From an uncultured virus (IMG/VR IMGVR_UViG_3300017706_002363) (Duplodnaviria; Heunggongvirae; Uroviricota; Caudoviricetes): a DNA stretch of 64,000 bases. The position numbers and the translations under genes are program-made. Each line of letters begins with the position of its first letter. The first letter of the stretch is position 1. The stretch lies in the IMG/VR virus record IMGVR_UViG_3300017706_002363. The stretch is one strand, 5' to 3'. The notes below the pieces were generated by a model. The model saw only the letters and a list, made by a program, of their open reading frames with translations, was not told the DNA's origin and ran no database searches. Positions 10,844 to 37,296 of the stretch are shown here, in pieces.

Positions 10844-10876
10844 TTTTTTTATATCAAATAAATTTGTTATATTAGA
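10844..10876 (+). promoter_or_regulatory. Putative early promoter (TTT..ATVTC-N8-TTNNTATATTW)
   Basis: One of about 11 copies of a ~33-bp intergenic motif. Confidence 0.65.
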
Positions 10877-23729: not shown

Positions 23730-23786
23730 AAAATTTTTATATGTCAAAAAAAATTGTTATATTATTATAAATAAAAAAGGTTACAG

Positions 23787-24731
23787 ATGAATACAAATTA
23801 TATATTAGGAGCAGGACCAGCAGGTTTAATAGCTGCGTATTATAATGAAGACTATAAGGTTGTTGATGAAAAACCTTTAGGTCAACTCAATATGCCATTT
23901 ATACCAGGACCTAGACTTTTACAGTCAAATCAAAATATGAAATGGTTTGTTAAAGAAATTGCAAATGATTTAGAATTAAAAATCGAAAAATGTGTTATAG
24001 GTTATCATGAAAAAGAAGGTGTATACGACTCACCTGATGAAAACTTCAAGAAAAAATATAGCATGAGAACAAGAGGCAATGAAGGTGAAGGCAGCCATCT
24101 GTCAGAAGGTAAGACAGAAATTATGCATTGTGAGGTTGGTGAATTAGGTGAAGATAGTTATAAAGAAATATTTACTCGATTACTTAAGATTATAGAAGAA
24201 CGAGGCCAGTTAATAAAAACATCTGTAAAATCAATAAACACGTCAAGTAAAACAATAGAATTTACAAATGGCGTTACTGATAGCTATGATGAAATTATTT
24301 CTACGTTAAATGTTAATATATTAAGAAAAATATGTTCTAATGTAGATACTGAATGTACAGAATTAGGATTTAATTTTGAAACAACCAAAAAATCATTTTA
24401 CAAATGTAGCTATGGATATACAATACCAGAAGCTATGGACAGTAAGCATCCATCACTAACATACGACTATATATATTCAATACATGCAGACTGGACAAGA
24501 TGTACATTTTTTAAGGACTATATTGTATATGAATCAACAGAACCTATTGAAGGTGATGAGATTGAAGGAAATAAAATAGAGATGAAGTTTGAAAATCTAC
24601 CTATACAAATAAAACAAAGCTACAGAATTAATGAGATATGTGGAATTGTTTTGCTAGGAAGATTTGCAGAATGGAATCATAAAATAAAAGCTAACGAAGT
24701 ATTAGACAAGGTGAAAGAATGGATAGATTAA
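23787..24731 (+). CDS. FAD-dependent oxidoreductase (UDP-galactopyranose mutase-like superfamily)
   Basis: N-terminal ILGAGPAGLIAA Rossmann motif, YD.IIST and C-terminal LLGRFAEW.H. Confidence 0.7.
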   Translation: MNTNYILGAGPAGLIAAYYNEDYKVVDEKPLGQLNMPFIPGPRLLQSNQNMKWFVKEIANDLELKIEKCVIGYHEKEGVYDSPDENFKKKYSMRTRGNEGEGSHLSEGKTEIMHCEVGELGEDSYKEIFTRLLKIIEERGQLIKTSVKSINTSSKTIEFTNGVTDSYDEIISTLNVNILRKICSNVDTECTELGFNFETTKKSFYKCSYGYTIPEAMDSKHPSLTYDYIYSIHADWTRCTFFKDYIVYESTEPIEGDEIEGNKIEMKFENLPIQIKQSYRINEICGIVLLGRFAEWNHKIKANEVLDKVKEWID

Positions 24732-25675
24732 AAGAAGTATTTAAGATACAAAAAGATTTTACTAATAGATTTTTCGAAAAACAAGGTTTATCGTTAAATG
24801 AGGTAATGAAGGATAAGGAACTTAAGATTAAATGGAACAAGGAGTACGTTCTAGCGCTGTCTAAAGAGGTATATGAAGTCCTCGATGAAATAGATTGGAA
24901 AATGCATACATCAAAAGATTCTGAAGATATTAACGACAATGTATTAGAAGAATGCGTTGATGTTATGAAATACCTGTTTGGTATTATACAACTAAATGGA
25001 TTTAATGTAGATGATTTATATGAAAAGTTTATTGATAAGTCAAAGGTGGTTGAGGCTAAGTTTAATCAGGAAGAAGTAATGAAAAAAATAAAATCATCTG
25101 ATAAGAAAATAGCATTTATCGATATTGATGGTGTACTTGCAGACTGGCCTGGTGGATTTTTAAAATGGCTAGGTGATGAACATGGAATGAGGTTTAGTAC
25201 ACTTTCTGAGTTTAAGAGCAGTGTCGATAAAAAACAACAATATAAATTAAAATCAGAATATAGAACGTGTGGCATAAAATCAAAGCTTGATGTATTATCA
25301 GGTGTAGAAACATTTATGAAAAAAACATGTGAAAAATATAATGTTGTATTGCTTACTGCCAGGCCGTATAAAAAATACTTTAGAATATATTCAGATACAA
25401 TAAAATGGTTAGCTGATAATGACATTTGTTATGATGCAATAGTCTTTGACGAAGAAAAAGAAAAATATATTATTAACAACTTTGATACAGACAAAGTAGC
25501 TTTTTGTATTGATGATGATATACAAAATGCAAACAAACTTCATGATAGTGGATTCAAGGTATACCTAAGAAAAAACTTAGGCATATACACTGAAGAAACG
25601 CTCAAAAGAAAATTAAATGATGGAATTAAAATAATTAACGGAAATATAATAGAGGTAACATACAATGGTAATTAA
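24719..25675 (+). CDS. Fusion: dimeric all-alpha dNTP pyrophosphatase (dUTPase/dCTPase-like) + HAD 5'(3')-nucleotidase
   Basis: N-half F..QK, E..EVLDEIDWK.H, EECVDV; C-half IDIDGVLAD, LLTARP, T.KWL, IDDD. Confidence 0.8.
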   Translation: MDRLKEVFKIQKDFTNRFFEKQGLSLNEVMKDKELKIKWNKEYVLALSKEVYEVLDEIDWKMHTSKDSEDINDNVLEECVDVMKYLFGIIQLNGFNVDDLYEKFIDKSKVVEAKFNQEEVMKKIKSSDKKIAFIDIDGVLADWPGGFLKWLGDEHGMRFSTLSEFKSSVDKKQQYKLKSEYRTCGIKSKLDVLSGVETFMKKTCEKYNVVLLTARPYKKYFRIYSDTIKWLADNDICYDAIVFDEEKEKYIINNFDTDKVAFCIDDDIQNANKLHDSGFKVYLRKNLGIYTEETLKRKLNDGIKIINGNIIEVTYNGN

Positions 25676-26087
25676 TATTAAAAAATTAGACCCAGCAGCA
25701 TCAATACCTGCTTATGCTAAAATCGGCGATGCAGGAATGGACTTAACATGCGTAAGTTTTAAAATATCAGAAACATATGTAGAATACGATACAGGTTTAT
25801 CTATGGAGATACCTGAAGGACATGTTGGATTTTTATTCCCTAGAAGCTCAGTTTCAAAAACAAATTTGGTTTTAGCAAACTGTGTTGGAGTTGTTGATTC
25901 AGGTTATAGAGGTCCTGTCAAACTTAGATTTAAGGAGTTGTCAGGTCCTCCTGGTGGAAGATATAAAGTAGGTGATAGAGTAGGTCAGATAATTATTATG
26001 CCAGTACCTGCTTTTGAATTTAATGAAGTAGAAGATTTAACAAATACAGACAGAGGAGATGGAGGATTTGGTAGTACAGGAAGTTAA
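25665..26087 (+). CDS. dut: Trimeric dUTPase
   Basis: AGMDL, PRSS, GVVDSGYRG, GDRVGQ, RGDGGFGSTG. Confidence 0.96.
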   Translation: MVINIKKLDPAASIPAYAKIGDAGMDLTCVSFKISETYVEYDTGLSMEIPEGHVGFLFPRSSVSKTNLVLANCVGVVDSGYRGPVKLRFKELSGPPGGRYKVGDRVGQIIIMPVPAFEFNEVEDLTNTDRGDGGFGSTGS

Positions 26088-26418
26088 ATTAACTTATTGC
26101 TTTTACGAGAATCCTGCAGCAAAACAAGAAATTAAGTTTTGGGAATCTTTGGTTGAAGACAGTATAAAATCAAAATCGTTTATAGGTGACAACTGGGGAT
26201 ATAGGTTGGAAAAAGATGGCGAAATAGAATTTGTATGTTGTATACCACTTCAAGACTTGCACTCCAACACGGTTGTAGAAAATACTGCAAAAGATGTTTT
26301 TGAGCTTCACAAGAATAAAAACGAAATATTAAAATATCACAAAACTCTCATATTTGGCAAAGTAGAAATTGACCAAATAAGATTTATATCTACAAAAATG
26401 ATGCTATGGGAAGAATAA
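26059..26418 (+). CDS. Hypothetical protein
   Basis: ORF fills the gap in the operon; start uncertain. Confidence 0.5.
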   Translation: MEDLVVQEVKLTYCFYENPAAKQEIKFWESLVEDSIKSKSFIGDNWGYRLEKDGEIEFVCCIPLQDLHSNTVVENTAKDVFELHKNKNEILKYHKTLIFGKVEIDQIRFISTKMMLWEE

Positions 26419-26825
26419 TACACATTGACGGACCTGATAAAACAGGAAAAGACTCTATAAGGCGACAAGTTGTTAAAAACGCAAAAGGTACAACATTGGT
26501 TTATATTAGGTCTTTTTTATCACAAATTGTATATTCAAGGTTATATAACAGAAAGATTGACGAAGACTGGTTTTTTGCAAAATGGAAATTGGCATTTAAT
26601 CTTGGTGAAGAATTTTACTTTGTTGACTGTTCATATGAGCTTGTAAAAGAAAGATTTATAAAACATAATGAATCAGATTTAGATATAAAAGACTGGAAAG
26701 AACATAGGCGTGTATTTTATGAAGTACTTAAGGATGCATCTGAAATAGGAATACACCCTACAAGAATAGACACAACAAGAGATACAATAGAACAATCAGC
26801 AATTAAAATACAGGAGATATTATGA
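26406..26825 (+). CDS. dNMP/thymidylate kinase-like protein
   Basis: P-loop IIHIDGPDKTGKDS; R.FLSQIVYSRLYNR; C-terminal IDTT. Confidence 0.8.
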   Translation: MGRIIHIDGPDKTGKDSIRRQVVKNAKGTTLVYIRSFLSQIVYSRLYNRKIDEDWFFAKWKLAFNLGEEFYFVDCSYELVKERFIKHNESDLDIKDWKEHRRVFYEVLKDASEIGIHPTRIDTTRDTIEQSAIKIQEIL

Positions 26826-27886
26826 AAAAATTATTTATTACAGGAGAAAGTGGTATGTTGGCCACATCAATTATTAAAGCTTTAGAAGAAAGCGGCAATA
26901 CTAGATTCGAGGTTATGGACAACACAGACCTTGCAGAATATACAAATGATTTTAGTTATCTTAATGGAAAGCTTGTAAAACCTAAAGAGGTAGATGTCAC
27001 TGATAGAAAAGTACTTGCAAAGGTTGCAAAAAGATTGACACCAGATGATATTATTATACATACAGCTGCATATGTAAACACTGACAAATGTGATGACTTT
27101 TCATACGAGGCAGTTAATTCAAATATTATTAGTACTCAGTTCTTAATTGATATTGCAAATTCAGTAGGATGTAAACTAATTTATTTTTCTACAACTGCAG
27201 TTTTCGACCCAGATGAATATATGAAAAATAATGGTGAATTTGATGAAACTGCACCTATAGACCCTAAAACACTTTATGGTCTTTCTAAATATTCTGGCGA
27301 ACTTGCAACAAAGCAATCTATGGATTTTGAAAAAATGATGGTAATCAAACCTGTATTTATTTATGGCGACGCACCATTTGATAATTCTTCTATGATTAGA
27401 AAAATTACAGAAAAGGTATACTGTGACATGAACAAGATACCTTATACACTGTCACCTTTAAACGAACATGGTAAGCTTGATGTATTGCTTAACCCTGAAA
27501 TAGACAAAGACTATATGAGATATGAATATTTTGCAGATATGTTTTTACAATTATTGCTTATGGATAATGGATGGGGAAAGGACTTTATTATAAGTAAAGA
27601 TGCTCCAATGCCTTTTGAAAACTATCTATATTTGATAGAAGAAATAACAGGCTGCAATGATTTAACACAGCATATTAATATAATTTCTGAAGGTGATTAT
27701 CTTGCGAGACATAATGGCAAGTCAAAAAACTTTTACGATTTATATCCTCATTATAATCTTTCAGTTAACGCAATGAATTCAAGAGAAGGTATATCAAAAA
27801 CATATTTATCAATAGTAAAGCATTATGAAGAAAACAATAACAAAAATACAAAACCTGCTAAACGCACAAGACTCTTCCACATATAA
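26822..27886 (+). CDS. NAD-dependent sugar epimerase/reductase (RmlD-like SDR)
   Basis: ITGESGMLA, IIHTAAYVNTDKC, YFSTTAVFD, YGLSKYSGE. Confidence 0.85.
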   Translation: MKKLFITGESGMLATSIIKALEESGNTRFEVMDNTDLAEYTNDFSYLNGKLVKPKEVDVTDRKVLAKVAKRLTPDDIIIHTAAYVNTDKCDDFSYEAVNSNIISTQFLIDIANSVGCKLIYFSTTAVFDPDEYMKNNGEFDETAPIDPKTLYGLSKYSGELATKQSMDFEKMMVIKPVFIYGDAPFDNSSMIRKITEKVYCDMNKIPYTLSPLNEHGKLDVLLNPEIDKDYMRYEYFADMFLQLLLMDNGWGKDFIISKDAPMPFENYLYLIEEITGCNDLTQHINIISEGDYLARHNGKSKNFYDLYPHYNLSVNAMNSREGISKTYLSIVKHYEENNNKNTKPAKRTRLFHI

Positions 27887-28331
27887 GGAAATATACAATT
27901 TCAATTATGATGTCGAGGTAGACACAAGTTTTATGAACACGCCTATCCCACCTGCACTTATAGGTGACGAGGTTGAAAGAAGCGAGCTAATTAAAGATAT
28001 GGTTGGCTTGTGTATAGAAAAAGGTATCGATTCTAGACAATGCGTGCTTCATAAAAAATATCAAAATGACGAATCGTTAGCAGCATGTCTTTCTACAATA
28101 CAGGCAATATCTAGAGAAGGTAAAATAGATTTACATGTATTTGTAAGAAGTCAAAACTTTGATAGCAATTTTTGTTATGACAATCAGACATATATGATGA
28201 TTATGTGCGCATTATTAATACAGTTTCCTGAAAACAAATTTGGAAAAATATATGTTCATATTACATCTCTTCATAGATTTATGAAAAACGGCAAAAAACC
28301 TTTTACAATACTTGTTAATAACTTTTGCTAA
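27825..28331 (+). CDS. Minimal thymidylate synthase-fold protein (dCMP-modifying-like)
   Basis: DSRQCV, catalytic-Cys-like LAACLSTIQ, R.GK.DL.VFVRSQN, YD at the substrate-specificity position, HITSLH. Confidence 0.7.
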   Translation: MKKTITKIQNLLNAQDSSTYKEIYNFNYDVEVDTSFMNTPIPPALIGDEVERSELIKDMVGLCIEKGIDSRQCVLHKKYQNDESLAACLSTIQAISREGKIDLHVFVRSQNFDSNFCYDNQTYMMIMCALLIQFPENKFGKIYVHITSLHRFMKNGKKPFTILVNNFC

Positions 28332-28337
28332 AAATCC

Positions 28338-28369
28338 TTTCGTATCTCGGTAAATTTTGTTATATTAGA
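28338..28369 (+). promoter_or_regulatory. Putative early promoter of dnaE
   Basis: TTTCGTATCTCGGTAAATTTTGTTATATTAG. Confidence 0.65.
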
Positions 28370-28394
28370 TATATAATTAAAAAGGCAAAAATAT

Positions 28395-31300
28395 ATGTGC
28401 AATAAGTGTGACTACAAACTAAAGTATAAAAAAGGTAATAAGTATACAAACTATATTCCTTTACATGGACACTCTACTTACTCTCAAGGTGATGGTGTAA
28501 CCAAAATAGAAGATATTATCACTCGTGCAAAAGAAGTTGGTGCACCTGGTATATCATTAACTGAGCATGGAAACATGTCTTCATTTTATAAGTTTTATAA
28601 TAGTGCAAAAGAACATGGAGTAAATCCTATTGTTGGATGCGAACTATATACAAATGACCTATATCATTCAGATAATGAAAAATTTCTAGAACTTAAAAGA
28701 GGTACATCAGAAGTAATCGGCGATGCAGGAGAGCACCTTGACAAAACTGCAGCCGCAAATAACCATACTTTGGTTTATTCTAAAAACTATGAAGGTGTTA
28801 AAAATCTACTTAACATTTCAAATGAAGGATTTGACAATTATTATAGAAAGCCTTTATCAAGTATGAATAGAGTATATGAAGGTCTTAACGAAAACAACAT
28901 TATTACAACAGGCTGTCTTCAGTCAAAGTGGAATCAATTGGTACTTGCAGGTAATGAGGTAGAAGCATTAAAGTTAATTAAAAAGTTTAGAGATAAATTT
29001 GGTGAAGACTTTTACCTCGAGGTACAGCTAAACAACCTTGATATACAAATGACATGTAATAACTTCTATAAAAAGGTTTATGAAAAAACAGGAATAAAAC
29101 CTGTATTTGCACTTGATTATCACTACGCAAATAAAGATGATTGGTACATACAATATTTATTATATGTAATTCGTCAAAGAGAAACTGTACAATCATATAC
29201 ACCAGACGACTGGTTTTATACAGTACACTCACTTTACATTAAAGAGATTGATGAAATCTATGCAGAGGCAGAAAAATATGGTATGGATAAAAAATTCCTT
29301 GAATTAGCTATAGATTCAACATTCGAAATAAATGATAAGGTAAATATTGAAATGCCTAAATATCCTGACAACTTCCCTAAATATCACGAAGATAAATCAT
29401 TAAGCGAATCTGAATTTATGTCAAAGCTTAAAGTTAAATGGGTAGAAAAAATAGGCAATGGACTTTTACCTCAAGATGACAAACGATATACAGATAGATT
29501 AAAATACGAATTAGATATTATTAAGTCAAAAGGATTTATTGATTATTTCTTAATTTTAGATGACTTACTTAATAACTTTGTATATAAGGTAGGTGGTGCA
29601 ACTGGTGCCGGCCGTGGTTCTGCTGGTGGTTCACTTGTACTATTTGTGTTGGATATTACAAAAATCGATCCGATAAGACATAATTTAATTTTTGAAAGGT
29701 TCTTAAACCCCGCTAGAATTGACCCTGCCGATGTAGATTTGGACATTGATTCTGATACTCAAAAACTATGCGAAGGTTATTTAAAGGAAAAGTTTGGTAC
29801 TGAACGTGTTTGTCATATTGCAAACTTTGGTAAATTCGGTGCAAAGACAACTGTAAAGGATTTGTGTAGAATACATGAACTGGACTTTGTTTTATCAAAC
29901 AAGCTTACAGGTTATTTTAGCGATGACCCAAACTCACCTATTGATTTTGAAATGAAAAACGCTTTTAACATTGCACAGAAAAAAGGTGAAAAAGATTTAA
30001 TGGCATTTATAAAAGACAATAAAGAGCTATTCTTAAAAATTGCACCTAAAATGGTAGGCATGGTTAGACAAACAGGTAGACATGCATCAGGTATATTGGT
30101 AAGTAACAAGGACTTAAATTGTTCAGAAATACCTTTATTAAGACTTAAAGGCGAAACTGTTACAGGTGTACAAGAAGGTGGTGATGAACGTGAGGTTAGT
30201 GAACTTGGATATTGTAAACTAGATATTCTTGGTCTTAAGGCTGCATCTGTAATAAACGACACATTTAAGCTTATTGAAAAAGAACATGGTAAGTTTGGCT
30301 TAGAAGAGGAAATACTAAAATCTGATTTTGATGATAAAATGGTTTATGACGAATTTGAAACAGGTAATTGTAAAGACATATTCCAGTTTGGTTCTGACAA
30401 TATGATTAATCTTATTAGAACAATCAAGCCAAAAAGCATTGTAGATTTATCTTCTATTAACGCAATGTTTAGGCCAGCAATTATACAAGCTGGTGGTATT
30501 GATGAATATATTAAGAATAGACAAAACCCGGTAGAGGCAAAAATGATATTGGATAACAAGTCACCTTTGCTTTGGGATATATTAGGCGAATCATTTGGTG
30601 TACCTATATTTCAAGAGCAGATTATGTTTATTCTACAAAAAATAGGTGGATTTACACTTGCTGAAGCCGATGGTGGTAGAAAAATCCTTAAGTTATTGCA
30701 TAAAGGTAACCAGGAAAAGAAAGGTAATTTCTATGACATGCTTGATAGATTTAAAAAAGGTGCAAAAGCAAATGGCATGAAAGATAGAGATATAGATGAA
30801 TTACTTGATGTACTAGGTAAATATTCTGAATACTCATTTAACAAATCACACTCTCTTGCATACGCTATGAATGCTTATATATCAATGTGGCAAAAGGTTC
30901 ACTATCCAAAAGAATATTATGCATCGCTATTAAATCATTCAACAAATGCAGAATTAAGTTGGTTTGTTAAACAGATTAAGAAAAAAGGTATAAAGTTTAA
31001 TGAGTTTGAAATAGGCCAAACAGGTAATAGCTTTGAAATAGATAGAGAAAATAACTCAATTAAATTTGGTTTAAATCTTGTAAAAGGTATACCAGACAAG
31101 GACGCTGCAATTATAAACTCTGCAAATCGTGGTGACATAAGCACTGTAAAAGATTTAGTTGAATTTATACTAAGCAAGAAAATAACAAAGCGTACATATG
31201 AACCTCTTTGTAGACTAGGATATTTTAAAGGTATCATGAAAAATTCTAAAATATTGGAAGAGATTATCAATGCATGTAGAAATAAAAAGAAAGCAGACAC

Positions 31301-31748
31301 AGTTGATGGTTTAATACAGTCAGTTACTGAAGCTAATATAGGTGAAAAGGATTGGGATAAAACACAAAAGTTTGAATGGGAAAAGAAATACTTTGACTTT
31401 TATTTTAATGAGCATCCGTTTTCAAAATATAAAGAATTTTTCTACGAACATGCACCTGACATTATTGCTCAACTAACCAGTCCTAAACAGATACCAGATG
31501 ATATAGAAAAAGGTAAGTTCCAGCTATATGGTATTATCAATAAAATTATTATTAAAAAATCCAAAAAGACTGGTAGAGAATTTTACAAAATTGCTTTGGA
31601 AGATGATTTAAAACAATTGTTTATAACAATATTTAACACAAGAGATATTGCAGGACTATCAGAAGGTGAGTTTGTGTTAATTCCTGCATCGAAGAATAAA
31701 TTTGGTTTTACAAAAAGTAAAAACTCTTCGATAAAAAAGTTGATATAA
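28395..31748 (+). CDS. dnaE: DNA polymerase III alpha subunit (family C)
   Basis: PHP motifs HGHSTYS..DG, TEHG, GCE, DYHY; GRGSAGGSLV, FERFLNPAR...DVDLD, GRHASG, KLDILGL, FQEQIM, YSFNKSHS. Confidence 0.96.
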   Translation: MCNKCDYKLKYKKGNKYTNYIPLHGHSTYSQGDGVTKIEDIITRAKEVGAPGISLTEHGNMSSFYKFYNSAKEHGVNPIVGCELYTNDLYHSDNEKFLELKRGTSEVIGDAGEHLDKTAAANNHTLVYSKNYEGVKNLLNISNEGFDNYYRKPLSSMNRVYEGLNENNIITTGCLQSKWNQLVLAGNEVEALKLIKKFRDKFGEDFYLEVQLNNLDIQMTCNNFYKKVYEKTGIKPVFALDYHYANKDDWYIQYLLYVIRQRETVQSYTPDDWFYTVHSLYIKEIDEIYAEAEKYGMDKKFLELAIDSTFEINDKVNIEMPKYPDNFPKYHEDKSLSESEFMSKLKVKWVEKIGNGLLPQDDKRYTDRLKYELDIIKSKGFIDYFLILDDLLNNFVYKVGGATGAGRGSAGGSLVLFVLDITKIDPIRHNLIFERFLNPARIDPADVDLDIDSDTQKLCEGYLKEKFGTERVCHIANFGKFGAKTTVKDLCRIHELDFVLSNKLTGYFSDDPNSPIDFEMKNAFNIAQKKGEKDLMAFIKDNKELFLKIAPKMVGMVRQTGRHASGILVSNKDLNCSEIPLLRLKGETVTGVQEGGDEREVSELGYCKLDILGLKAASVINDTFKLIEKEHGKFGLEEEILKSDFDDKMVYDEFETGNCKDIFQFGSDNMINLIRTIKPKSIVDLSSINAMFRPAIIQAGGIDEYIKNRQNPVEAKMILDNKSPLLWDILGESFGVPIFQEQIMFILQKIGGFTLAEADGGRKILKLLHKGNQEKKGNFYDMLDRFKKGAKANGMKDRDIDELLDVLGKYSEYSFNKSHSLAYAMNAYISMWQKVHYPKEYYASLLNHSTNAELSWFVKQIKKKGIKFNEFEIGQTGNSFEIDRENNSIKFGLNLVKGIPDKDAAIINSANRGDISTVKDLVEFILSKKITKRTYEPLCRLGYFKGIMKNSKILEEIINACRNKKKADTVDGLIQSVTEANIGEKDWDKTQKFEWEKKYFDFYFNEHPFSKYKEFFYEHAPDIIAQLTSPKQIPDDIEKGKFQLYGIINKIIIKKSKKTGREFYKIALEDDLKQLFITIFNTRDIAGLSEGEFVLIPASKNKFGFTKSKNSSIKKLI

Positions 31749-31804
31749 TTTCTCTATGTCGCAAAGATTTGTTATATTTATATTAAATAAAAAGGTTATA
31801 GAAA

Positions 31805-32620
31805 ATGCAAGATAAATTAAGTTATGATGTGGTAGAAAACCTGAGAATCGTAATGGGAACATTACCTGAGGAACAGCCACTACTAAAAACAGAATTCAAA
31901 ATACTATCAGACGAGGTTGATGTGACATTAGAAGACCACATGTCAAATCCTTATAAATCTATGTTTGTTACTAGTACCTCAACATGGGGTGACAATGAAT
32001 TTAAAAGAAAATGGCCATTAACTTCACCAGAAGGAAAGCTTGAAGTTGTAAAGGCTGTATTAACTCACAATACTTTACCACAGGCTAGAGAAATGGTTCA
32101 GTTTATATTTAGAGTGAGAGGCGTTCCAAGATGGTTATTTGATTATCACACACAAACACCTTTTACGAGTTTTATGAGTATAGGTTGCCGTGACAATAAC
32201 AAGTCCGATGTAGATATCGTAACTCTTTCTTCTTTAGATGAAAAAGAAATAAAGGTAATGGAAAGGCTAAAAGCACTTTATTCACGAGCACTAGATACAG
32301 ACCAAGCATCTTGGCAATCTGCAAGGTCATTTTTACCACAATCATACCAACATTCATATCATTTTGGACAGAATTTACTTTCACTTGTAAGCATGAGAGG
32401 TTTTAATGCATCAGGTAATTTTAACCTAGATGATAATAAAGATTGGGCACTTAATGAATTATACAAAAAGGTGGTAAAATCTGTTGAAGAAAAATTCCCT
32501 TTAATAGGCGAATACTTAAGAGTTATTACAGAAGATACAGAAACTGTACTAGATTTTATTAAAAATATTAAATACGAAGATTTAAAAGAATCCGATAAAA
32601 AGCTATTTGAAAATGAGTAA
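31805..32620 (+). CDS. Divergent ThyX-fold protein 1
   Basis: E.VQFIFRVRGVPR....H, S.MS.G.R, WQSARSFLPQ..........N..L. The canonical RHR motif is absent. Confidence 0.65.
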   Translation: MQDKLSYDVVENLRIVMGTLPEEQPLLKTEFKILSDEVDVTLEDHMSNPYKSMFVTSTSTWGDNEFKRKWPLTSPEGKLEVVKAVLTHNTLPQAREMVQFIFRVRGVPRWLFDYHTQTPFTSFMSIGCRDNNKSDVDIVTLSSLDEKEIKVMERLKALYSRALDTDQASWQSARSFLPQSYQHSYHFGQNLLSLVSMRGFNASGNFNLDDNKDWALNELYKKVVKSVEEKFPLIGEYLRVITEDTETVLDFIKNIKYEDLKESDKKLFENE

Positions 32621-33327
32621 TATTAAAATTAAAAAAGGCATTGAATGTCTAGATGTTGAAATACTAATGTGGAATCCTGATTCTCAGATGATAACATATA
32701 AAGTAACAGGAACACCTGTTTGTCAATTTGACCAGCATTCAAGAGCTAGAGTTGGAATTAAGTTTAAAGACTACAAGGTAAGCGAAGAACCAAATTATGT
32801 TGTATACACACAGGTGTGGGACACAATGGAAAAAGACCCTGAATTTAAAAAAGAGGTTATAGAAACATTGGAGCAACTTGAAGAAATAAGAAATGAACAC
32901 GAATTAAATTTATTTTCTCAAGTAGAAATGTCTGCACTTAATCTTATGTCAAGAGAATGTAGTTATATTGTAGAACAAAATATAGGTTCGCTAAGAGGTC
33001 AGATGACAAGAAGACTTCAATTCTGTGAAGAAGAATTTATTGTTGGTTTACATTGGCTATTACGAAAAAAGATGATAGACGCAGGAATAGGACTTGCTGA
33101 AGGTTTTAAACCTATGTGCGATATTACAAAAAAATGTGAATATGCTAAAGCCGACTATCTTTCAAACGCATTTGGTTGTTTATTTGCAGGATGCGGAAGA
33201 TGGAAATCACATACAGAATTTGCAAGTTTCAATCAATCATGTACAACACCAGAACTTGTTAAAGAACAAACAGGCGTTACATGTACAAAATCAGAATATG
33301 AATTACAATTAGAAAAGGAGAATACAG

Positions 33328-33335
<8 letters not shown>
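32607..33335 (+). CDS. Divergent ThyX-fold protein 2
   Basis: Y.V.G......DQHSRARVG, NIGSLRGQM.RRL..C, PMCD..KKC.Y; Cys-rich C-terminus. Confidence 0.6.
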
Positions 33336-37089: not shown

Positions 37090-37296
37090 ATGGAACAAAA
37101 ATTAACATCGGTAAAAGTTGATATAGATTCTTGGAATGATTTTAAGAAACTATCAATAGATGAAAAAATTACATTTAGACAATTGGTTCAAATATCAATT
37201 GCTGAATTTATAAGCGACAAAGGTTTTAGAAATATAATAAAAGAAAAGGTTACAGAAAATGGCAACAAGCAAAAAGAAAATATTACTGCTAGGTGA
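37090..37296 (+). CDS. Small ribbon-helix-helix-like DNA-binding protein
   Basis: KLTSVKV....W..FK......ITF..LV; AGGAG SD; upstream TATTTATA at 37060. Confidence 0.55.
   Translation: MEQKLTSVKVDIDSWNDFKKLSIDEKITFRQLVQISIAEFISDKGFRNIIKEKVTENGNKQKENITAR

Follow-up and report, generated by a model that had tools for sequence, protein, structure and literature searches.

The question raised by this locus is whether a block of nucleotide and sugar enzymes around a replicative polymerase serves to modify the bases of phage DNA. The locus lies at positions 23787-33335 of the window, the whole 64,000-nucleotide stretch that was analysed, which comes from an uncultured virus (IMG/VR record IMGVR_UViG_3300017706_002363). 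The source phage is large, low-GC, uncultured and tailed, and the window is one part of its genome. The block consists of ten co-directional open reading frames (ORFs) on the + strand, located between the ribonucleotide reductase (RNR) gene and groES. Seven of the nine ORF junctions are overlaps of 4-62 bp, and the remaining two are gaps of 63 and 56 bp. A first-pass annotation had read the block as a pathway that modifies a pyrimidine with a sugar at the nucleotide level. The present results suggested that the block very probably modifies DNA, and it is best explained as an exchangeable anti-restriction cassette of DNA-modification and polymerase genes.

The strongest evidence was the position of the block. 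A DnaB-anchored scan yielded 47 loci, six of which were known loci of the window type; 13 of the 41 new ones end before the slot, and 28 show it. A window-type cassette filled the slot in 12 of these 28 loci. The slot of seven loci held a kinase, a 249-aa thymidylate synthase (TS) with Asp177, a dUTPase and a family B polymerase (PolB), and that of six held a kinase and an asparagine-synthetase-like protein (with the same 249-aa-type TS where visible). A T4-like dCMP hydroxymethylase (RSND..ND) was found in two loci, and FolE, a radical SAM QueE-like gene and QueD in one. PolB was seen in 10 of the slot-showing loci, and DnaE occupies its place in the window. Since the window block stands in the same slot as known modification cassettes, it is read as a modification cassette itself.

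The slot contents of some sister phages were also recorded in detail. A non-T4 phage (L134:13889-18998) carries a dCMP hydroxymethylase, DUF6378, a T4-type beta-glucosyltransferase (Pfam E 1e-19), a dUTPase and PolB, a compact glucosyl-hydroxymethylcytosine cassette. Another (L152:13400-19019; likewise L139, L141, L143, L155 and L158) carries a kinase, an asparagine-synthetase-like amidotransferase, a dCMP-type TS and PolB, which suggests another uncharacterised cytosine modification; seven sister phages carry this cassette minus the amidotransferase. FolE, QueE-like and QueD genes of the 7-deazaguanine pathway follow RNR in L159:13360-15521.

All nine enzymes named in the first-pass annotation proved to be real, each backed by Pfam/PHROGs or a fold match. 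A tenth conserved gene, absent from that list, was found between the dUTPase and the kinase. The genes of the block are as follows:

23787..24731, + strand: 314-aa flavin adenine dinucleotide (FAD) protein with a reduced UDP-galactopyranose mutase (UGM) fold (AlphaFold/Foldseek, profile)
24719..25675, + strand: fusion of an all-alpha (dUTPase_2/MazG) nucleoside triphosphate (NTP) pyrophosphatase and an NT5C-like HAD phosphatase, here MazG-HAD (Pfam)
25665..26087, + strand: trimeric dUTPase (Pfam E 2e-20)
26059..26418, + strand: orf119, conserved 119-aa protein (alignment)
26406..26825, + strand: P-loop deoxynucleoside monophosphate (dNMP) kinase, thymidylate-kinase-like (Pfam)
26822..27886, + strand: extended short-chain dehydrogenase/reductase (SDR), RmlD/epimerase-like (Pfam E 7e-26)
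27825..28331, + strand: 168-aa minimal TS fold (mini TS) with C88, R108-S-Q-N111 and D119 (alignments, model)
28395..31748, + strand: complete family C replicative polymerase, DnaE (Pfam)
31805..32620, + strand: ThyX-like copy 1 (Pfam Thy1 E 3e-7)
32607..33335, + strand: ThyX-like copy 2 with a Cys-rich C-terminus (Atlas feature score 0.94-0.95 to Thy1 clusters)

The conservation of the block was investigated by two scans. The flavoprotein-anchored one found 35 loci, with identities down to 20%. The other, independent and anchored on ThyX, found 47; the 32 with at least 9.9 kb upstream were counted and 15 shorter ones were dropped, and several of the 32 are near-duplicates, so the counts are not independent events. 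Profile searches of the 32 loci found the flavoprotein, MazG-HAD and the kinase in all of them, DnaE in 30, the mini TS in 28, the SDR in 26, orf119 in 25, dCMP deaminase in 15, uracil-DNA glycosylase (UDG) in 11, the trimeric dUTPase in 8 and a methyltransferase in 3. In these ThyX-anchored loci the flavoprotein, MazG-HAD, kinase, TS-like, ThyX-like and DnaE genes were co-conserved, which supports the first-pass annotation. Gene order differs between loci, and kinase-mini-TS and DnaE-UDG fusions occur.

Several relatives showed rearranged cassettes. In L104, L113-L116 and L121 the family C polymerase is fused to a UDG-like domain, parallel to the UDG-PolA fusions of phages with modified thymine (T). 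In L023-L025 and L032 DnaE is split (427 + 748 aa), the kinase is fused to the mini TS, the SDR is lost, and a class I RNR and a cysteine-synthase-like gene lie upstream. L038:9434-18948, judged from composition to be a probable haloarchaeal virus, has kinase, flavoprotein, MazG, methyltransferase-like, UDG-like, ThyX-like and mini TS genes next to a family B polymerase that contains an intein; in its mini TS, RASD replaces RSQN.

The flavoprotein had no match in Pfam, and its family was assigned from structure and profiles. The AlphaFold model (pLDDT 94) had Aspergillus UDP-galactopyranose mutase as its top PDB match (Foldseek E 3e-12, TMq ~0.7, identity 11-14%), and the profile matched UGM with E 3.8e-9. 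The FAD-binding fold is present, with G8/G10/G13 and a C-terminal GR conserved; Y230 is invariant and R238 near-invariant in the family. The columns of the active-site residues Y317 and R327 of A. fumigatus UGM are conserved, and the UGM entries Y317A, R327A and R327K scored below wild type against the phage profile. At what we take to be the position of the UGM GGH flavin loop, the phage protein has GPR. UGM catalysis runs through a flavin N5-sugar adduct. Judged from the model, the flavoprotein is a reduced UGM fold of the eukaryote type, 314 aa long versus ~510 aa in UGM. Its family comprises 786 clusters at 50% identity (E <= 0.001, with the tail unchecked).

The ThyX-like proteins form a complementary pair. 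Residue numbers were transferred by hand through an alignment with M. tuberculosis ThyX and T. maritima numbering. Copy 1 keeps the equivalents of R90 and R147 and has lost Q75/R78/R80, with S88 replaced by G and Y91 by D. Copy 2, which had no match in Pfam, keeps the equivalents of Q75, R78, R80 and R174 and has lost the R90/R147 segments. The dUMP-binding residues Q75, R78, R90, R147 and R174 are therefore all present over the two copies jointly, as they are in the single-chain relatives L029 and L035, whose one 335-aa chain joins a copy 1 N-terminus to a copy 2 Cys-rich C-terminus. The RHR-x7-S motif of ThyX is found in neither chain (QTP...G in copy 1; RAR without the S/R90 segment in copy 2), and H79, S88 and Y91 are all replaced in the pair. 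The S88/Y91 positions are G/D in 18 of the 20 rows of alignment A3, the exceptions being L038 and the canonical L028 row, which inflates the PDB score of A3. Alignment A4 includes one copy-1-type row, and an hhalign comparison of A3 with A4 (100%) was discarded as circular because of rows in common.

Copy 1, copy 2 and the single-chain forms fell into one clade (support 100/99) in a tree built without SP-15 gp9 and some redundant rows, which points to a duplication whose products divide the work. PMC5954106 places ThyX active sites where three subunits meet, so the two copies could plausibly complement each other in a mixed tetramer. A normal ThyA (E 1.6e-80) is present besides the module in the complete 391-kb genome G004, and normal RHR-type ThyX is encoded nearby in L028 and L113-L115. 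The copies are thus not plain dTMP supply, a result in line with the first-pass annotation.

Among the enzymes of the block, the mini TS alone bears the direct signature of an activity already characterised. Its model (pLDDT 89) had the HY126 dCMP hydroxylase AfhB as top PDB match (Foldseek E 1.2e-8). Its profile best matched T4 dCMP hydroxymethylase (E 3.5e-8), with wild type outscoring D179N mutants. The catalytic C88 is invariant in 21 alignment rows. The motif C88...RSQN...D119 equals the one in RB69 gp48, an enzyme proven to be a 5-hydroxy-dCMP synthase, for which PMC13326640 gives D169N and N177D as diagnostic residues; the same RSQN..D occurs in AfhB. D119 is aligned with T4 D179 and the RB69 gp48 Asp (ThyA position N177, dCMP preference), and an Asp 7-8 residues past the RSQN position is kept in 58 of 59 homologues. 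The ThyA 169 position is N in 39 of them, D in 17, H in 1 and E in 1 (N111 in the window), and the ThyA L143 position is Leu in the window (LAAC) versus acidic in RB69 (EYPC). The protein is ~70 residues shorter, with these residues lacking from the cofactor-site region, and only the C-terminal 85-93 columns align. From these residues the mini TS is, with good probability, cytidylate-directed, and for this clade 5-hydroxy-dCMP synthase (hydroxylase) is the best guess. Its use as a stand-in for dCMP deaminase was rejected; both co-occur in loci.

The remaining enzymes were examined for motifs and distribution. MazG-HAD has invariant acidic motifs (E50/E53/D56/E77/D81 and D135/D137/D265), and the base specificity of its dUTPase_2/MazG domain cannot be read from sequence. 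The dimeric enzyme had been suggested to be a dCTPase on the ground that a dUTPase is already present. The trimeric dUTPase is not cassette-specific: it occurs in only 8 of the 32 cassette loci, sister phages have it in their PolB cassettes too, and with a dUTPase common to different cassette types the basis of that argument is gone. Several relatives have the kinase and the mini TS as one fused protein, and the kinase family profile matches RB69 gp45 (E 8e-13) and SP-15 gp134 (E 8e-9). The SDR has an intact YxxxK with Y152/K156 invariant. It is accessory and dispensable to the cassette: it is absent from 6 of the 32 loci, including the cassette of the complete genome G003, so that an obligatory donor pair of SDR and mutase was not supported. 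In the versions examined from Pbunaviruses and actinophages, neither the SDR nor the mini TS was detected. No family was assigned to orf119 by Pfam, PHROGs or Atlas, the top Atlas score of 0.87 being only a lead.

T derivatives from cultured phages were compared by mass. The Pbunaviruses F8 and 14-1 are reported to contain derivatives of 362 and 390 Da at ~25% of T in TG context, and the preprint leaves their genes unassigned (PMC12191111). Linkers of T+88 in SP-15, T+88 in Carin-5 and T+104 in YerA41 are described in PMC12686479, PMC13697223 and PMC5977210, the last of which states that the SP-15 dihydroxypentyluracil linker is made before DNA synthesis. The computed masses of di-, tri- and tetrahydroxypentyl-deoxyuridine (dU) are 330, 346 and 362 Da (T+88, T+104 and T+120). 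We infer that the F8 362-Da product belongs to this ladder, a reading that is not that of the F8 authors. The computed mass of 5-hydroxymethyl-dU (hmdU) plus a pentosyl is also 390 Da.

The proposed core consists of the UGM-fold flavoprotein, the rewired ThyX, the NTP pyrophosphatase-HAD, the kinase and the polymerase. It may make a C5 sugar-derived (polyol or sugar) uracil nucleotide via a flavin-N5 aldose adduct, partly replacing T, a reading for which the chances were judged evenly balanced; T is most likely the modified pyrimidine. With the nucleotide arginines kept, S88/Y91 lost and a constant UGM-fold partner, attachment of an aldose to dUMP C5 is the best reading of the ThyX pair. According to PMC8316439, ThyX can take up a free aldehyde through an N5 carbinolamine and pass it to dUMP, R174 serves to activate dUMP, and normal turnover needs S88/Y91. 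The two copies would form one mixed tetramer that binds dUMP and carries an aldehyde on flavin N5, as ThyX does with free formaldehyde. A larger aldose (pentose or pentose-5-phosphate) would be joined to C5, in space freed by the loss of S88 and Y91. The flavoprotein would open or isomerise the sugar donor by UGM-type N5 chemistry, and the SDR may alter the oxidation state of the side chain. The HAD would strip a side-chain phosphate or degrade dTMP/dUMP, the pyrophosphatase would reduce dTTP/dUTP, and the kinase and DnaE would bring the analogue into DNA by a pre-replicative route. The mini TS would be a cytidylate-directed add-on, most likely yielding 5-hydroxy-dCMP, which would either constitute a second, minor modification or enter the same route.

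The uracil direction is supported by the kept R174 equivalent, by dCMP deaminase (15/32) and UDG (11/32) in the cassette loci, and by UDG-DnaE fusions in several of them; a UDG-polymerase link is also described for T-modified phages (PMC13697223). As for timing, by analogy the SP-15 precedent suggests pre-replicative sugar installation and the F8 TG context a later step. An extended form of the proposal is considered improbable: a heterotetrameric ThyX-fold C-C glycosyl/polyol transferase, supplied with aldose by the miniature UGM-fold flavoprotein, would give the 330/346/362-Da series of SP-15, YerA41 and F8, while the mini TS would hydroxylate dCMP, so that both pyrimidines would be modified.

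A number of results weigh against the uracil-centred proposal. The one direct activity signature, that of the mini TS, is C-directed, and each of the three sister cassettes built on a TS is of the C type. One clade has lost the SDR. The F8 modification in TG context points to a step on DNA, the F8 and 14-1 authors read 362 and 390 Da as an O-type tetritol and a cyclic pentose (PMC12191111), and the window HAD profile had no match to F8 gp57. In the tree the window ThyX pair did not group with the Pbunavirus enzyme, and the tree is no more than compatible with one common origin for the altered ThyX forms (89/86). No flavoprotein homologue was found in the whole SP-15 genome. Searches with tblastn against cultured phages (ThyX copy 1, a single-chain relative and a distant flavoprotein) gave no match, no cultured member of the clade of the window phage was found in this way, and no modified nucleosides are known for the phage or its close relatives. 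The observed/expected ratio of GATC was 0.08 in the window, 0.12 in G001, 0.01 in G002 and 0.70 in G003. The strong avoidance in the window, G001 and G002 indicates that any substitution is probably partial, and the idea of full replacement of the canonical base was not upheld. Host differences could also cause the contrast between phages. CpG depletion of ~0.5 was seen in the window, G001 and G002, and dinucleotide patterns did not discriminate between C and T modification.

Closest to the first-pass annotation is a cytosine-centred route, in which the mini TS makes 5-hydroxy-dCMP, MazG removes dCTP, and an NDP-furanose from the SDR and mutase is put on the 5-hydroxyl, with the ThyX pair serving as dTMP supply or as an unusual transferase. 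The RSQN..D motif and AfhB fold match argue for it, as do the C-type sister cassettes, the RB69 gp45-like kinase fused to the mini TS in relatives, and RL38J1, where a 5-hydroxy-dCMP synthase is coupled with UGM (PMC13326640). It was nevertheless judged unlikely. No DNA glycosyltransferase was found among the ten block ORFs by Pfam/PHROGs, and GT4 genes are not favoured as the transferases of the cassette: the nearby one at 37259 tracks the backbone (3/4 PolB-cassette records; absent from complete G004). Asn169 is present in only 39/59 homologues, position 143 is Leu and ~70 residues are lacking from the cofactor-site region, and the regions examined in Pbunaviruses and actinophages retain the flavoprotein and ThyX although no mini TS was detected there. 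The GATC ratio of 0.08 also contrasts with the glucosyl-hydroxymethylcytosine sister, where GATC was not among the most avoided words (21 kb only).

If T is modified in two stages instead, the ThyX pair would make a small handle (5-hydroxymethyl- or 5-hydroxy-dUMP), and a sugar from the flavoprotein/SDR would be added after replication, context-dependently, by an unrecognised transferase. This would account for the TG context and 25% occupancy in F8, for a 390-Da mass equal to hmdU plus pentosyl, and for the conserved Y317/R327 columns of a mutase that normally gives an NDP-furanose donor. However, no transferase or 5-hmdU DNA kinase was recognised in the cassette, the F8 and 14-1 products differ despite nearly identical flavoproteins, and the SP-15 linker precedes DNA synthesis according to PMC5977210, which makes this route distinctly unlikely. 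It is very unlikely that no base is modified at all and that the block is a replication and nucleotide-pool unit, with a divergent dTMP synthase and with sugar enzymes for virion glycosylation. Complete G003 does have the ThyX pair only, with neither ThyA nor normal ThyX, avoidance of GATC, a site of restriction type, persists and a glycan island is nearby. But the flavoprotein stands beside ThyX-like genes in 32/32 loci and in unrelated actinophages, Pbunaviruses and a probable haloarchaeal virus; ThyA/ThyX coexist with the pair, its H79, S88 and Y91 are lost, and the slot otherwise holds recognisable modification sets. A base-modification pathway was therefore retained from the first-pass annotation on account of the slot, the co-conserved core and the cytidylate-type mini TS, without the dCTPase inference, the obligatory donor pair and full replacement.

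The surroundings of the block were also examined. The motif TTGTTATATT occurs in 9 copies in the window versus 1.2 expected, and 0 of 100 shuffles reached 9; judged by sequence and position, it is a probable phage promoter element. The copies start at 10864, 13851, 19223, 23754, 28357, 31769, 47416, 54331 and 60456. Three copies suggest three promoters in the block:

23754..23763, + strand: TTGTTATATT motif upstream of the flavoprotein gene
28357..28366, + strand: TTGTTATATT motif upstream of dnaE
31769..31778, + strand: TTGTTATATT motif upstream of the ThyX pair

Other genes of the window include tail sheath, tail tube, a gp32-like single-stranded DNA-binding protein, RecA, DnaB, class II RNR, GroES/GroEL and the glycan island. 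The glycan genes begin at 37259, 4 kb past the block and ~9 kb past the SDR. The island (window:37259-50040) encodes GT4s, UDP-GlcNAc 2-epimerase, acetyltransferase, DegT aminotransferase, Gfo/Idh/MocA, heptose-pathway-like and UDP-glucose dehydrogenase-like proteins. A series of short genes with a common N-terminal 'MIKLxDILxE' motif lies at window:57662-62939 and also occurs in G003. The nearest IMG/VR contigs have flavoproteins of 86-98% identity. A scan of GTDB genomes with the flavoprotein alignment gave 600 pattern matches, none of which was confirmed, so no host was assigned.

Literature searches, with supplements outside their scope, found no paper giving the cassette a function, and a prior bioinformatic mention is possible. 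The architecture of TS-fold enzyme, kinase, NTPase and polymerase is already known; neither the core enzymes nor the split ThyX have been characterised, and what this analysis adds is the exchange of cassettes in the slot, the complementarity of the two ThyX copies and the ladder of masses. One phage lineage trades four base-modification chemistries along with the polymerase family (B versus C). Candidate genes can be named in easily cultured phages (Pbunaviruses used in therapy and the PLot/PBI1 group) for T modifications with unassigned biosynthesis, and the cassette may bear on the 50-year-old problem of SP-15 dihydroxypentyluracil. If the proposal is true, ThyX chemistry would widen from one-carbon to sugar transfer. 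Given the size of the flavoprotein family, many phages now taken as unmodified may be modified.

The block was compared with known systems. The glycosyl-5-hydroxycytosine systems (RB69 gp45-gp55, DLP3 gp76-83, HY126 Afh and RL38J1, with arabinosyl- or galactosyl-5-hydroxycytosine) are alike in having a TS-fold enzyme with the catalytic Cys, D169N and N177D, and an adjoining small thymidylate-kinase-like kinase, HAD, NTP pyrophosphatase and polymerase, with UGM in RL38J1. Their TS is ~238 aa with an acidic 143, whereas that of the window is 168 aa without it. The window block has no DNA glycosyltransferase, sugar isomerase or nucleotidyltransferase, has the ThyX pair and DnaE, and its flavoprotein is a distant, reduced UGM.

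SP-15, Carin-5 and YerA41 have in common a divergent Thy1 protein (SP-15 gp130, adjoining a FabG-like gene), with homologues in only 10 phage records. They resemble the window in this Thy1 fold, in an SDR nearby (SP-15 gp129, Carin-5 gene 58), in dNMP kinase-like and HAD genes, and in a UDG tied to the polymerase. They differ in a 413-aa Thy1 without detectable similarity to the window pair, a classical FabG-type SDR, a family A polymerase and extra glycosylation genes. The idea that gp130 is a tandem ThyX like the window pair was dropped, a single-sequence hhalign giving no support. In SP-15 gp129-gp135 (L043:40025-46105), gp134 resembles an unannotated dNMP kinase and gp135 a HAD, and these genes are candidates for making the dihydroxypentyl linker.

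The Pbunavirus flavoprotein gp65/66 is related to the window family (hhalign 96.6%, 211 columns; third BFVD match, E 1.3e-9), and most of the length of the family profile is aligned, as it is with the actinophage 'oxidoreductases' described below. F8 and 14-1 likewise have a small flavoprotein, HAD, MazG-like gene and polymerase in one region, and their ThyX has RxR (RTR-type) replacing RHR and no Y91. It is, however, a single ThyX outside the window clade, and the HAD is of another subfamily; the mini TS, SDR and orf119 were not detected in the 38 kb of Pbunavirus examined. Rhizobium phage RHph_TM40 (207 kb; L165:8950-15612) has a Pbunavirus-type flavoprotein, an altered ThyX (RNR motif) and a HAD, which makes it a candidate for modified T.

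An actinophage 'oxidoreductase' is also related to the window flavoprotein (hhalign 97.6%, 240 columns), and the accompanying HAD matched with E ~1e-19 to 1e-24. The set runs oxidoreductase-phosphatase-(methyltransferase, FabG)-DnaE-ThyX-like and occurs in the mycobacteriophage PLot/PBI1 group, Gordonia Xenia2, Microbacterium Krampus/Ajin, Streptomyces PHTowN and Arthrobacter Wollypog. No mini TS or kinase was detected in the regions examined, and literature searches found no report on the DNA chemistry of these phages. The flavoprotein was accompanied by an altered ThyX and DnaE in 7/7 regions and by the HAD in 6/7. With ThyX itself (PF02511), the window pair shares the fold and the arginines for dUMP binding and activation, and it differs in being split into two complementary paralogues in which H79/S88/Y91 are replaced.

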